A stretch of 57,404 nt of DNA, taken from positions 19,349-76,752 of the forward strand of contig DFGM01000105.1 of the NCBI GenBank assembly GCA_002371755.1, read 5' to 3'. Positions 40,917-49,778 of this stretch are shown here, piece by piece. Below the pieces are notes generated by a model that worked only from the letters and a program-made list of their open reading frames with translations, did no database searches and had not been told where the DNA came from. Position numbers and translations under genes: made by a program. Every line of letters begins with the position of its first letter. Within the stretch, counting starts at the first letter, position 1. This DNA comes from Verrucomicrobia bacterium UBA3750 (GTDB lineage Bacteria > Verrucomicrobiota > Kiritimatiellia > RFP12 > UBA1067).

Positions 40917-41990
40917 ATGTTAGAGGGGGTGTGGCTCGTGAAATTGCAATTCGATAAGAGTGGACGGCGCTTTTTCTTTCTCACTTTCTGCGTGAGGGGA
41001 AGGAAGGCAGTGCTCTCGCATATCGTGAAGAAAGCGGAGCGCGACGGCAAGCAGGGCTACGCCGTTGAACTGACGCCGGCGGGCGAGGCCATGGCCGCCC
41101 TGTGGCGAGGCACCCATGCCAGATGGACATTCCTGACAGCGAGCAACTTCATCATCATGCCCGACCATCTGCATTTGCTGTTGATAGCCGATTACGGCAA
41201 GGCGCGGGAATTTGACATTCTCGACTGGTTTCAGCATTTCAGGCGAGAGGGAGAAGATGTTGTCGCTCCCTTGATCGGTGTGAAAGCGCCCCTTGTGTGG
41301 GAAGATCATTTCTGGCTGTTGCTCGTCAACGCCGGACGACCGCTGGCGGCCGTCCGCAAGTATATCAAGATGAACCCGGCGCGGAAGATGTGGAAGACGC
41401 TCAATCCGGATCGCTTTGTCCGCAGGAGCGGGCTGAGGCATGCGGTTCTAGATCCGTCGATTTCATGGACCGCCATTGGCGACTTGACGCTTCTAGCGTC
41501 GCCTTTCATGTTCCCCGTGCGACTGACGCGCAAGATGACGGTCGAGCAGCATTTGCCGGAGATAGAGCGGATGGTCGAAAAGGCCCGTCGCGGTATGCTG
41601 CCTGTATGCGGTTTTCTTTCGCCGGGCGAGAATGCACCTCCGCCGCAATGCACCGATACTACGCGGCGGGCAGGGGTCTGCCCGCCCTACCGCCGGATGT
41701 CGCGGTTGTCGCGGTTGTCGCGTGGTAGGGCATATCCCCCAGCCGAAGGCTGTCCGCGATGCGGATGCCCTAGCAGGGGTGCGAGACCCCTCGCCGCCGG
41801 GTTGATATACTGCGGCGGGCAGGGGGCTCACCGCCCTACCGCCGGGGCGGCACCGATACTACGCGGCGGGCAGGGGGCTCACCGCCCTACCGCTCTACCG
41901 CTGCGGCACTCAAACCGCCCCAACTCCTACTATCCGCAACCAGCGAAATATGGTATAATATACAACCAATGGCAGGTAGTATACAGATAG
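40917..41990 (+). CDS. RAYT-like (REP-associated tyrosine transposase, IS200/IS605 Y1 HUH superfamily) protein; the 3' part of the ORF is REP-derived
   Basis: FFFLTFCVRGRK, HUH motif IIMPDHLHLLL, and catalytic-Tyr motif VRKYIKMNPARK. From about 41640 the frame simply reads through REP copies (RRAGVCPPYRR...GGQGAHRPT x2). The start is uncertain (ATG 40917 or GTG 40938). Confidence 0.6.
   Translation: MLEGVWLVKLQFDKSGRRFFFLTFCVRGRKAVLSHIVKKAERDGKQGYAVELTPAGEAMAALWRGTHARWTFLTASNFIIMPDHLHLLLIADYGKAREFDILDWFQHFRREGEDVVAPLIGVKAPLVWEDHFWLLLVNAGRPLAAVRKYIKMNPARKMWKTLNPDRFVRRSGLRHAVLDPSISWTAIGDLTLLASPFMFPVRLTRKMTVEQHLPEIERMVEKARRGMLPVCGFLSPGENAPPPQCTDTTRRAGVCPPYRRMSRLSRLSRGRAYPPAEGCPRCGCPSRGARPLAAGLIYCGGQGAHRPTAGAAPILRGGQGAHRPTALPLRHSNRPNSYYPQPAKYGIIYNQWQVVYR
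41640..41930. repeat. REP-like cluster, inverted relative to the 33947-34075 copies
   Basis: GCGGCGGGCAGGGGTCTGCCCGCCCTACC at 41664-41692 is the reverse complement of 34016-34043. GCACCGATACTACGCGGCGGGCAGGGG recurs at 41651 and 41851. Variant arm GCGAGACCCCTCGCCGCC lies around 41780-41800. GTGGTAGGGCAT is shared with 34063. Confidence 0.85.
41945..41959 (+). promoter_or_regulatory. extended -10 promoter for the secretin operon (GAAATATGGTATAAT)
   Basis: One mismatch to the window motif. ATG 41969 lies 9 nt after the -10. No SD and no obvious -35. Confidence 0.5.
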
Positions 41991-43234
41991 CGGCCTTTCA
42001 TGGAGGCCGGTTGGATGTGCGTGCTACGGGTGAAAAGTCCAACGAAGCGGTGCTTGCGCTACCGCTCGGGCGGCTTTTGGCCAAAATCGTCCGCATCGAT
42101 TCTGCGGATAAGGAAGGCTCCGTTGCGGCGGCGTTGGCCGAGTTGAAGGCGGCAAGCCCGTATCCCGATGATGATTTGACTCTGAGTCTGGAGACGATGC
42201 GCGAGACAGCATCCGGCCAGATTGCCATTGCCGCCGCTCTTCCTGAAAGCGCCACGGAAGACATAGGCGAAGCGTTGGACGCGGCAAAACTGAACATAAC
42301 GCGCATAGACGCGCTCTCTTTGGGCGTTTTACGCGAGAAATGGCCGTTCATTCTCGGCAATCAACCAGAAGCCGATGCTTCCGTGCGGCGGCTTGTATTC
42401 GTCCAGGAACTTGACGATGTGGCGGCGTTTGCGATGGATGGCGATATGCCAGTCGCGATGCGTGCGATTTCAGGCCTTTCCATAGAAGCGGATATGGTGC
42501 GCGAGACGACGCGCCTTTTGCTGGAGGCCGAAGATTTTGGCGGCAGCCGGGAAGTTGCCGAGGTCGTGACCTTGGGCGACGTGCCGGTGGAAGGGCTTGG
42601 GATTTTCTCCAAGAACATCCGCCGTCTTGAGCTTGCGGTGGAGGATCATGCCGGGTTCGACGGCGTCGCGGAGCGTTCGGTGGAAGAAGGCACGCTCAAT
42701 GCGCTACCCGAGAGCTGGCGCGTCATGCTGGAAGAGACGCGTTTCAAGGGGAAGATGAAAAGGGCGCTAGTTGCGGCGATTTCGGTCTGGGTGCTCGTGA
42801 TGGCGGTTCTTTTCGGGGTTCCGGTGGCTTACGGCTACATGACCGACCATCAGAAGTCGTTGAGCCGCGCCCACTCCAGGCGCTACAACGAAGTGAAGGA
42901 AATGCGCGAAAAGGTGCGGCTTGTGCAGAAGTATTCCGACCATTCGCGCGGCGCCCTCGAAATCCTCAAGGCCGTCAGCGACAGAATGCCGGCGGGAATC
43001 GTCCTCGGCAACTGGAACTTCAAACGCGAAGACGGAGTGCGCTTTTCGGGCGAATCCGACGATGCTTCCAGCGTCTACGTTTTCAAGGACGCCTTGCAGG
43101 CGATGGCGTTCGGCGAAGACGATGACGCCGAGAAGGTTTTTGCGCAGGTGCTTCTTACCGGGCCTTCGGCCACCAAGGGCGGCAAGCAGAAGTTCGATAT
43201 CGAATGCCGGTATGAATCGGAGGAGGAGCGCTGA
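41969..43234 (+). CDS. GspL-like / PilM-PilN-fusion-like bitopic assembly protein
   Basis: About 260 aa of cytoplasmic domain, a single TM ALVAAISVWVLVMAVLFGVPVAYGYM, then about 130 aa of periplasmic domain. The call rests on topology and on its position before PilO-like and secretin genes. Sequence similarity is weak by eye. Confidence 0.45.
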   Translation: MAGSIQIAAFHGGRLDVRATGEKSNEAVLALPLGRLLAKIVRIDSADKEGSVAAALAELKAASPYPDDDLTLSLETMRETASGQIAIAAALPESATEDIGEALDAAKLNITRIDALSLGVLREKWPFILGNQPEADASVRRLVFVQELDDVAAFAMDGDMPVAMRAISGLSIEADMVRETTRLLLEAEDFGGSREVAEVVTLGDVPVEGLGIFSKNIRRLELAVEDHAGFDGVAERSVEEGTLNALPESWRVMLEETRFKGKMKRALVAAISVWVLVMAVLFGVPVAYGYMTDHQKSLSRAHSRRYNEVKEMREKVRLVQKYSDHSRGALEILKAVSDRMPAGIVLGNWNFKREDGVRFSGESDDASSVYVFKDALQAMAFGEDDDAEKVFAQVLLTGPSATKGGKQKFDIECRYESEEER

Positions 43235-48663: not shown

Positions 48664-49778
48664 GTCTCTCGGTAGGTATAGTGGGACTTCCAAATGTCGG
48701 AAAGTCGACATTGTTCAACGCACTCACGAAGAAGCAGCAGGCGGCGGCGGAGAACTATCCGTTCTGCACGATAGAACCCAACAGCGCCATTGTCGAAGTG
48801 GCAGACGAAAGGCTCGCGAAGCTTGCGGAAATAGTCCATCCCCAGCAGATAATCCATGCGACGGTGGAGTTCACCGATATCGCCGGGCTGGTGAAGGGGG
48901 CTTCCAAAGGCGAAGGCCTCGGCAACAAGTTTCTGGCGAACATCCGCGAGTGCGATGCGATACTGCATGTCGTCAGGTGTTTCGAGAACGACGACATCAT
49001 CCACGTGCAGGAGGGCGGCAACAAGTCCGCCCCCATCGACCCGGTGAGCGATGCCGAGGTGATCGAGACGGAACTCATTCTTGCGGACATGGAGCAGCTC
49101 CAGAAGCGTTACGACAAGGTGCGCAAGGAGGCGCAGGCTAAGGTGGCGCTGCGGCCGGAAGCGGAAGCGTGCGCAGCCTTGCTCAAGCATCTGGAGGAAG
49201 GCAAGAGCGTGAGGACGTTTCCGCGCAAAGAGGGGGATGCGATTCTCGGCGTTCTCAAGGAGCTCCATTTCCTCACGGACAAGAAAGTCATCTACTGCGC
49301 CAACGTTTCGGACGACAATGTGACCGGCGAAGGGAATCCTCATGTGGCGGCGCTGAAGGAATATGCTGACCGGGAGGGTGCCGAGACCGTGGTCGTGTGC
49401 GCGCAGATGGAAGCGGATCTCGCGGGTTTGAGCGATGCGGAGGCGAAAGAGTTTCTCGAAAGCTACGGACTCGAGGAAAGTTCTCTGGACCGCACCATAC
49501 AGCTTGCGTACCGCACGCTCGGGCTTGCGAGCTATCTTACGGCGGGTCCGAAGGAGGTGCGCGCCTGGACTTTCCGGCGCGGCTGGAAGGCCCCGAAGTG
49601 TGCAGGCGTAATCCACACCGACTTTGAAAAGGGATTCATCCGCGCTCAGGTGGTGTCGTACGAAGACTACGTGAAGTACGGCGGCGAATCCGGCGCGAGA
49701 GCGGCAGGCGCTCTCAGGCCGGAAGGCAAGGAATACGAAATGCAGGATGGCGATGTAGTGGAGTTCATGTTCAATTAG
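48660..49778 (+). CDS. ychF: ribosome-binding ATPase YchF
   Basis: [33 protein letters not shown] and a TGS-like C-terminus. ATGA overlap with the upstream stop. Confidence 0.95.
   Translation: [372 protein letters not shown]

Follow-up and report, generated by a model that had tools for sequence, protein, structure and literature searches.

A probable gspL-gspM-gspD-like sub-operon with a family-specific secretin tail in a Kiritimatiellae metagenome scaffold

We analyzed a chain of genes built around a secretin in a 57,404-nucleotide (nt) stretch of DNA from Verrucomicrobia bacterium UBA3750 (contig DFGM01000105.1), referred to here as the window. The window has a G+C content of ~58%, and its parent contig is an 80.4-kb metagenome scaffold (ENA ERZ28612953 scaffold_332). 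Homologs of its proteins are found in rumen and gut metagenome-assembled genomes (MAGs) labelled Kiritimatiellae or Kiritimatiellia. The chain consists of the following features.

41951-41959, + strand: extended -10 promoter element TGGTATAAT, ending 9 nt before ATG 41969; the motif is kept in relatives
41969-43234, + strand: P1, 421 amino acids (aa), first gene of the chain
43234-43770, + strand: P2, 178 aa, TGATG overlap with P1
43790-46756, + strand: secretin, 988 aa, 19-nt gap after P2
46136-46753, + strand: C-terminal tail of the secretin, residues ~783-988, ~200 aa, charged and then Pro/Ala-rich
46753-47313, + strand: nucleotidyltransferase (NTase; DUF6036), 186 aa, ATGA overlap with the secretin
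47310-47660, + strand: small gene, partner of the NTase, 116 aa from GTG 47310, overlapping the NTase stop
47707-48663, + strand: TolA-like protein, 318 aa, start ATG 47707, 46-nt gap after the small gene
48660-49778, + strand: ychF, housekeeping gene for a ribosome-associated ATPase, ATGA overlap with the TolA-like stop

The open reading frames (ORFs), the stop/start couplings with their TGATG and ATGA overlaps, and the 46-nt gap had been described in an earlier note on this DNA and were confirmed on re-reading, with two minor corrections. GTG 47310 is the likeliest start of the small gene, since this codon is preceded by the Shine-Dalgarno sequence GGAAGGAG; the gene callers picked the same start. 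For the TolA-like gene, the start is ATG 47707. Shine-Dalgarno sequences precede all internal genes, including P2 (GGAGGAGG), the secretin (GAGGAGGG) and the TolA-like gene at ATG 47707 (AAGGAGAA). The start of P1, the first gene, has none. The last gene was identified by Pfam YchF-GTPase_C (1.2e-36) together with MMR_HSR1, and it is a co-transcribed housekeeping gene that is translationally coupled to the TolA-like gene. These results support the view that the genes form a single, tightly coupled unit that follows a leaderless promoter.

In the secretin, a signal peptide and a low-complexity linker precede the N0-N3 domains, which are followed by the secretin domain. Pfam Secretin (PF00263) matched residues 603-776 with 134 bits (cutoff 27.5, E 5e-39), and Secretin_N matched three stretches (103.6 bits). 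The GspD model TIGR02517 aligned residues 73-783 to model positions 1-597 of 600. The ten best sequence matches in the PDB were all GspD proteins of type II secretion systems (T2SS), and PilQ came next, twenty orders of magnitude weaker. The PilQ model TIGR02515 reached 165.5 bits, below its cutoff of 284.35, and no AMIN match was found with Pfam. Judged by its sequence, the secretin appears to be GspD-type; we do not call it a certified equivalog, because its score of 321 bits does not reach the TIGR02517 cutoff of 351.35.

P1 and P2 are predicted to be inner-membrane proteins. The AlphaFold2 (AF2) model of P1, with a predicted local distance difference test score (pLDDT) of 86.5, comprises an alpha/beta cytoplasmic domain (residues ~1-245), a helix (248-338) that combines a single transmembrane segment with a coiled coil, and a periplasmic alpha/beta domain (344-414) that is PilN-like. 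The best Foldseek match of this model was PilM (5eou, 2e-10), and FtsA was matched as well. The GspL cytoplasmic domains 4pht, 1yf5, 1w97 and 5tkw were matched at 4e-7 to 1e-5, with template-modelling scores on the target (TM-target) of 0.50-0.60. The model covers the GspL targets 4pht and 1yf5 (TM-target 0.55-0.60) better than it covers PilM (0.44-0.46). At the sequence level, the P1 family profile matched Thermus thermophilus PilM (2ych) at 4.5e-6, and the C-terminal part of P1 matched Pfam PilN below threshold (E 0.014, 15.9 bits against a cutoff of 22.8). Several P1 homologs carry PF05137, and NCBI calls some of them PilN domain-containing protein. The curated GspL models of Pfam and NCBIfam (T2SSL and GspL_C) did not match P1 at E <= 0.1, and an hhalign comparison of the P1 family alignment with the single E. 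coli GspL sequence was uninformative (probability 1.6%). Given the equivalence between T2SS and type IV pilus components, a PilM-like domain fused to a PilN-like domain corresponds to the architecture of GspL, and P1 is modelled as such a fusion.

The AF2 model of P2 (pLDDT 84) is bitopic, with an N-terminal transmembrane segment, a long helix and a ferredoxin-like periplasmic domain. A fold search was needed here because the P2 family profile gave only a non-significant match to PilN among PDB sequences (E 0.42). Foldseek matched the model to PilO (3jc8_O at 5e-7 and 2rjz at 3.5e-5, TM-target 0.62-0.66) and to Amuc_1100 (4e-4). The NCBIfam model GspM_XpsM (NF040576) matched P2 with E 1.1e-3 and 18.7 bits against a cutoff of 60, and T2SSM_b was weakly matched by 16 of the 28 P2 homologs (best E 2.3e-4). 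As for P1, hhalign of the family alignment against a single sequence, E. coli GspM, was uninformative (probability near 1%). From its model, P2 would be a PilO/GspM-fold protein. The earlier description of the two proteins as GspL/PilMN-like and PilO/GspM-like is thus backed by fold but not by curated sequence thresholds, and in family-model searches with the three proteins only the secretin passed its Pfam cutoff, P1 and P2 giving sub-threshold matches.

We then compared the operon with 80 loci from a scan of species-representative genomes, with P1 identities of about 40-63%. P1, P2 and the secretin occur in this order in all 80 related loci long enough to show the trio, and a TolA-like homolog lies 3' of the secretin in 44 of the 56 loci whose sequence continues for 3 kb or more past this gene. 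From this downstream synteny, the ancestral unit looks like P1-P2-secretin-TolA-like(-ychF). Upstream of the operon nothing is widely conserved: the largest gene cluster was present in 15 of 81 loci, and no candidate substrate or motor gene was found there. The neighborhood proposed in the earlier note had also included a giant gene upstream and the NTase gene; the first was found in none of the related loci and the second in only three.

None of the genes of the 80.4-kb parent contig matched T2SSE, T2SSF or N_methyl in Pfam, and its Pfam annotations comprise only housekeeping genes and genes for carbohydrate-active enzymes (CAZymes). When E. coli GspC-O, HofB, HofC and PpdD were searched against the window by tblastn, the secretin was the sole match, and a prepilin cleavage motif was absent from all six window frames. 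These results confirm that the window lacks genes for an ATPase, a platform protein, a pseudopilin, a prepilin peptidase or a PilP/GspC-like protein, and for GspE, GspF, pseudopilins and the prepilin peptidase they extend this to the parent contig, on which no complete T2SS or type IV pilus gene set lies just outside the window either. The absence of nearby motor genes had been considered unusual, but the layout is an ordinary one. In the classical layout, operons of the pilMNOPQ type do not include the genes for ATPase, platform or pilin, which are located elsewhere; in E. coli K-12, hofMNOPQ (3.52 Mb) and ppdD-hofB-hofC (0.11 Mb) are 3.4 Mb apart. Dispersed T2SS genes are also known, for example the lsp loci of Legionella.

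In the comparison set, a T2SSE ATPase was encoded within 10 kb of the operon in only 2 of the 80 loci. The gene order in L032 is gspE-rpoN-P1-P2-secretin-TolA-like-ychF. The GspE of this locus has thousands of relatives with 88-94% identity in Kiritimatiellae MAGs, and Kiritimatiellae GspE shares 43-44% identity with E. coli GspE across almost the entire protein. In relatives, gspE is usually solitary and was found in two contexts (loci for both: L090-L092, 10001-11692; L093-L095, 10001-20246). In the first, the gene order is polA-gspE-dnaB-der. In the second, gspE is paired with rpoN, and next to the pair lies a divergent and canonical pilM-N-O-P-Q cluster (PilM of 398 aa, PilQ of 659 aa), which includes a sigma-54 activator (response regulator) and an N_methyl pilin gene. 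The 659-aa secretin of that cluster is only 25% identical to the window secretin. The solitary position of gspE among housekeeping genes in relatives supports the earlier suggestion of an outer-membrane conduit encoded apart from its motor, and the gspE-rpoN pair upstream of the operon in L032 fits it as well. A T2SS has been reported in the genome of Kiritimatiella glycovorans, the only cultured relative (PMC5148204). As a separate observation, the GspE gene upstream of the operon in L056 (5934-7525) is split into overlapping ORFs of 288 aa and 265 aa, which suggests a frameshift or an assembly error, and a 366-aa PilT-like ATPase precedes it.

We consider it probable that, in this uncultured gut or rumen bacterium, the region is the gspL-like/gspM-like/gspD-type sub-operon of a dispersed T2SS-like machine whose motor genes lie elsewhere, with the TolA-like protein as a fourth component. 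In such a machine, the inner-membrane scaffold would consist of P1 and P2, the GspE ATPase, encoded separately, would dock on the cytoplasmic domain of P1, and the secretin would be the outer-membrane gate through which a pseudopilus made from genes elsewhere would push folded exoproteins. The substrates could plausibly be the glycoside hydrolases and sulfatases secreted by these polysaccharide degraders. Like the GspL-GspM-GspD part of known T2SSs (Vibrio Eps, Klebsiella Pul, E. coli Gsp), the operon encodes a secretin of the GspD type in which N0-N3 precede the secretin domain; a bitopic P1, whose actin-like cytoplasmic domain (~240 aa) is joined through a single transmembrane helix to a ferredoxin-like domain in the periplasm; and a small bitopic P2 with the GspM/PilO fold. 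It differs from them in that the L-M-D operon is located away from gspE, gspF and gspG-K, in that GspC is missing and P1 and P2 score below thresholds, and in that the secretin has a lineage-specific charged tail of 81-236 aa and is coupled to an extra TolA-like gene.

Several points weigh against this assignment. P1 and P2 fall below every curated sequence threshold for GspL, GspM, PilN and PilO, and their best fold matches are PilM and PilO of type IV pili, not GspL and GspM. The score of the secretin is just under the GspD equivalog cutoff. The operon has no GspC or PilP gene, only 19 nt separating the P2 stop from the secretin start. Among the motor parts, only GspE was found, and it was found in relatives, to which the sampling beyond the 80-kb contig was confined. 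No substrate of the secretin module was identified.

Alternatively, P1, P2 and the secretin could be the alignment and secretin part (PilM-N, PilO and PilQ) of a type IV pilus, of a competence apparatus or of another type IV filament machine, extruding a pilus or taking up DNA. P1 and P2 alone cannot settle between a T2SS and a type IV pilus-like system, because their best fold matches are PilM (2e-10) and PilO (5e-7), and the profile match of P1 to T. thermophilus PilM, its weak PilN match and the PilN domain-containing names of some homologs point in the same direction. The operon has PilM-, PilN- and PilO-like folds in common with pilMNOPQ and hofMNOPQ, and like them it stands alone, encoding alignment proteins and a secretin far away from the genes for ATPase, platform and pilin. 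A further resemblance is that of P2 to Amuc_1100, from the pilus-like cluster Amuc_1098-Amuc_1102 of Akkermansia muciniphila, likewise a secretin-centred cluster with a PilO-fold protein in a gut bacterium of the Planctomycetes-Verrucomicrobia-Chlamydiae (PVC) group. However, the NCBIfam models for Amuc_1098 and Amuc_1100 gave scores far below their cutoffs (27 bits for a cutoff of 750, and 15.2 for one of 180), and Amuc_1098 has an N-terminal TPR/pilotin-like domain (PMC4960237), a difference from the window secretin.

The secretin argues against a pilus machine, since it matches the GspD model over the full extent of that model (321 bits, with only 165 for the PilQ model), finds GspD proteins as its ten best PDB matches and is devoid of AMIN domains. 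The operon has no PilP, and its PilM and PilN parts are fused, unlike those of pilMNOPQ and hofMNOPQ. The cytoplasmic domain of P1 is ~245 aa long, as in GspL, not ~350 aa as in PilM, and its coverage of GspL targets is the better one. Furthermore, related contigs hold the separate canonical pilM-N-O-P-Q cluster with its own secretin and a pilin gene, and the GspD-type module therefore looks like a non-pilus system. Set against the fold matches, this leaves the pilus alternative unlikely, and we retain the assignment to a dispersed T2SS-like machine.

Kiritimatiellae are abundant rumen and gut polysaccharide degraders that rely on secreted enzymes, and their secretion machinery is essentially unannotated; NCBI lists P2 and the TolA-like protein, along with several secretins, as "hypothetical." Assigning P1-P2-secretin to a dispersed T2SS-like system would provide a concrete handle on CAZyme export. 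The current understanding of secretin systems is not overturned: the arrangement is ordinary, and the private secretin tail and the coupled TolA-like partner are its only really new features.

The earlier note had described the protein as an N0-N3 secretin with an unusual, charged C-terminal extension of ~210 aa, and this was confirmed. In all 65 complete secretin homologs, the protein continues for another 81-236 residues (median 161) beyond FMTPYVL, where the secretin domain ends. The proximal ~100-130 residues of the tail are charged and conserved in sequence (PWDDHGWSxSxLADPVSKKEQ.RRLKDEWKKQDEER...), and the distal, Pro/Ala-rich part is variable. The suspicion that such a tail is atypical of described secretins also held, as in the PDB sequence search no solved secretin aligned past residue ~785. 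A search with tail residues 783-915 against 1.84 billion representative proteins returned 39 matches only, and every full-length match was the C-terminus of a protein of 850-1025 aa, from which we conclude that the tail is private to this secretin family. On this comparative evidence, the tail is real and lineage-specific, confined to this family, and is the actual novelty of the operon.

A transmembrane segment anchors the TolA-like protein at its N-terminus; a low-complexity, Ala/Lys/Glu-rich helix of ~150 aa follows, and the C-terminal ~150 aa (LPEND..LP, YPDW) are conserved. Its likeness to TolA is one of shape only, namely the N-terminal anchor and the long Ala/Lys/Glu-rich helical region. 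Neither the window protein nor 28 homologs matched the TolA C-terminal domain, the C-terminal region is unrelated to that of TolA, and the genomic context is the secretin and ychF rather than tolQRB or tol-pal. Searches of Pfam, NCBIfam, PADLOC and PDB profiles gave no family; apart from coiled-coil noise, they returned only IFT122, a weak TPR-like match (1.3e-3). In the related loci, the start of the TolA-like gene overlaps the secretin stop in 20 of 45 cases and lies within 60 nt of it in 6 more (26 of 45 together). The overlap of its stop with the ychF start, already noticed in the window, was confirmed and recurs as the same ATGA in 24 of 28 related loci. We infer that the operon has, in the TolA-like protein, a fourth member that is specific to the lineage and a candidate partner of the secretin.

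This association could also be explained by recent ancestry, the TolA-like gene and ychF being mere neighbors of a P1-P2-secretin unit and the tail a passive, disordered spacer. The 80 loci form one fairly narrow clade, as the P1 identities indicate, and the housekeeping genes ychF and thrC are syntenic too. In addition, the TolA-like gene, which matches no family, is missing downstream in 12 of the 56 loci. Across the same evolutionary distance, however, the upstream side is fully reshuffled, and at least 14 loci without a following ychF still have the TolA-like gene beside the secretin. Its frequent overlap with the secretin stop and the conservation of the proximal tail in sequence, beyond composition, likewise argue against chance neighborhood and a passive spacer. 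Loci that lack the TolA-like gene also tend to have shorter tails (median 146 versus 161), but with p = 0.049, uncorrected for phylogeny, this association is borderline and suggestive only. Overall, we find the explanation by ancestry possible but doubtful, and keep the TolA-like protein as a probable component of the T2SS-like machine.

As to function, our guess is that the TolA-like protein might be a periplasm-spanning scaffold that works with the charged tail of the secretin. The tail and the TolA-like protein are candidates for anchoring a secretin where no GspC, PilP or pilotin is evident. That they form a trans-periplasmic tether replacing the missing GspC/PilP linker is a specific proposal that we regard as distinctly unlikely; if true, it would be a previously undescribed coupling of a T2SS secretin to the inner membrane or cell wall in Kiritimatiellae.

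The NTase and the small gene had been listed as members of the module, which the comparison did not bear out. The NTase matched DUF6036 (PF19502; 9.6e-11, 42.2 bits against a gathering cutoff of 23.6), and the small gene matched no family in Pfam, NCBIfam or other profile searches. The pair was found at this position only in three related loci (L045, L048 and L067), always together. In 15 loci, an insert of 0.8-1.8 kb separates the secretin from the TolA-like gene, and such inserts encode zeta-toxin-like kinases, other nucleotidyltransferases or four-helix-bundle proteins of the 23S rRNA intervening-sequence (IVS) type. From these gene contents, the NTase and the small gene form a toxin-antitoxin-like accessory cassette at an insertion hot spot, outside the core module. 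Examples of the different cassettes that species carry there are found in L008 (14586-15660), L027 (8094-8935), L028 (8886-10726), L055 (14812-15729) and L083 (10991-11767), with repetitive sequence flanking the four-helix-bundle proteins.

Upstream of the operon, a 2054-aa secreted protein is encoded at 34519-40683 (+); it gave only a weak match to the PATR repeat and has no recognized translocator domain. Between it and P1, in the stretch 40881-41900, lies a degenerate ORF that resembles a transposase associated with repetitive extragenic palindromic sequences (REP-associated tyrosine transposase, RAYT). The insertion of a RAYT/REP element reported here stood in part: three 44-nt GC-rich REP-like repeats with imperfect palindromes are present at 41650, 41799 and 41850, but the transposase match is weak and below its cutoff (REP_Tyr_transpos, 1.4e-6, 28.2 bits against 80). 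A long ORF that reads through the REP-like repeats into the P1 start is probably spurious.

The position of the giant gene directly upstream, with only the RAYT/REP element between, and its lack of a recognized translocator domain had raised the idea of a self-contained, ATPase-independent secretin conduit dedicated to this protein. Neither the 2054-aa protein nor the RAYT has a homolog in any of the 80 related loci (1.3 Mb), and the giant protein is thus strain- or species-specific, in a region where nothing is widely conserved. Moreover, the operon has its own conserved promoter just before P1, P1 keeps a cytoplasmic domain of the type that docks an ATPase in known systems, and a highly conserved GspE is present throughout the lineage. 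We therefore hold a dedicated conduit to be extremely improbable; the giant protein and the RAYT/REP element appear to be unrelated neighbors of the putative T2SS-like operon.

The promoter 9 nt before ATG 41969, with no Shine-Dalgarno sequence, was confirmed as earlier described. TGNTATAAT occurs in 8 copies in the window, against 0.27 expected by shuffling. The extended -10 copies, (G)GAAtATGNTATAAT, are located at 6901-6909 (-), 22410-22418, 23618-23626, 25268-25276, 27361-27369 (-), 28690-28698 (-), 28853-28861 and 41951-41959, and all eight are oriented toward the start of a gene or tRNA (tRNA-Ser among them). Half of them lie 9-12 nt from an ATG, those of P1, FtsH (ATG 6888), a PAS protein (25287) and ribBA (28678), so leaderless mRNAs would be widespread in this organism. 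In most of ~70 related loci, TTTTGGTATAAT is found 8-10 nt 5' of the orthologous P1 ATG, and the most distant of the loci have this -10 element 35-45 nt upstream, with GGAGG after it. From these positions, the TGGTATAAT promoter is predicted to give a leaderless or near-leaderless mRNA. A scan of 40.6-52 kb for terminators and the sigma-70 consensus gave nothing above the shuffle background.

The gene callers placed the start of P1 at GTG 42017 (405 aa). The 16 N-terminal residues encoded between ATG 41969 and GTG 42017 are conserved among homologs, which identifies ATG 41969 as the real start and the callers' choice as wrong. For annotating this clade, the conserved, leaderless TGGTATAAT promoter offers a useful rule. 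The start that the callers gave to FtsH (6900) looks misplaced as well.

Elsewhere in the window, an ATP-synt_ab protein encoded at 28891-30192 (+) was considered as a FliI or type III secretion ATPase and rejected, as it is a V-type ATP synthase subunit B (NF002555, 734 bits). It is a lone gene between ribBA and proC with no other V-ATPase subunit nearby, another example of the scattering of operons that seems general in this genome. Finally, the contigs that carry the operon in L018, L019, L023, L060, L077, L085 and L086 sit in bins named Barnesiella, Faecalibacterium, Gemmiger, Azospirillum or Methanomethylophilaceae, and such names indicate mis-binning or mislabelled MAGs in the public collection.

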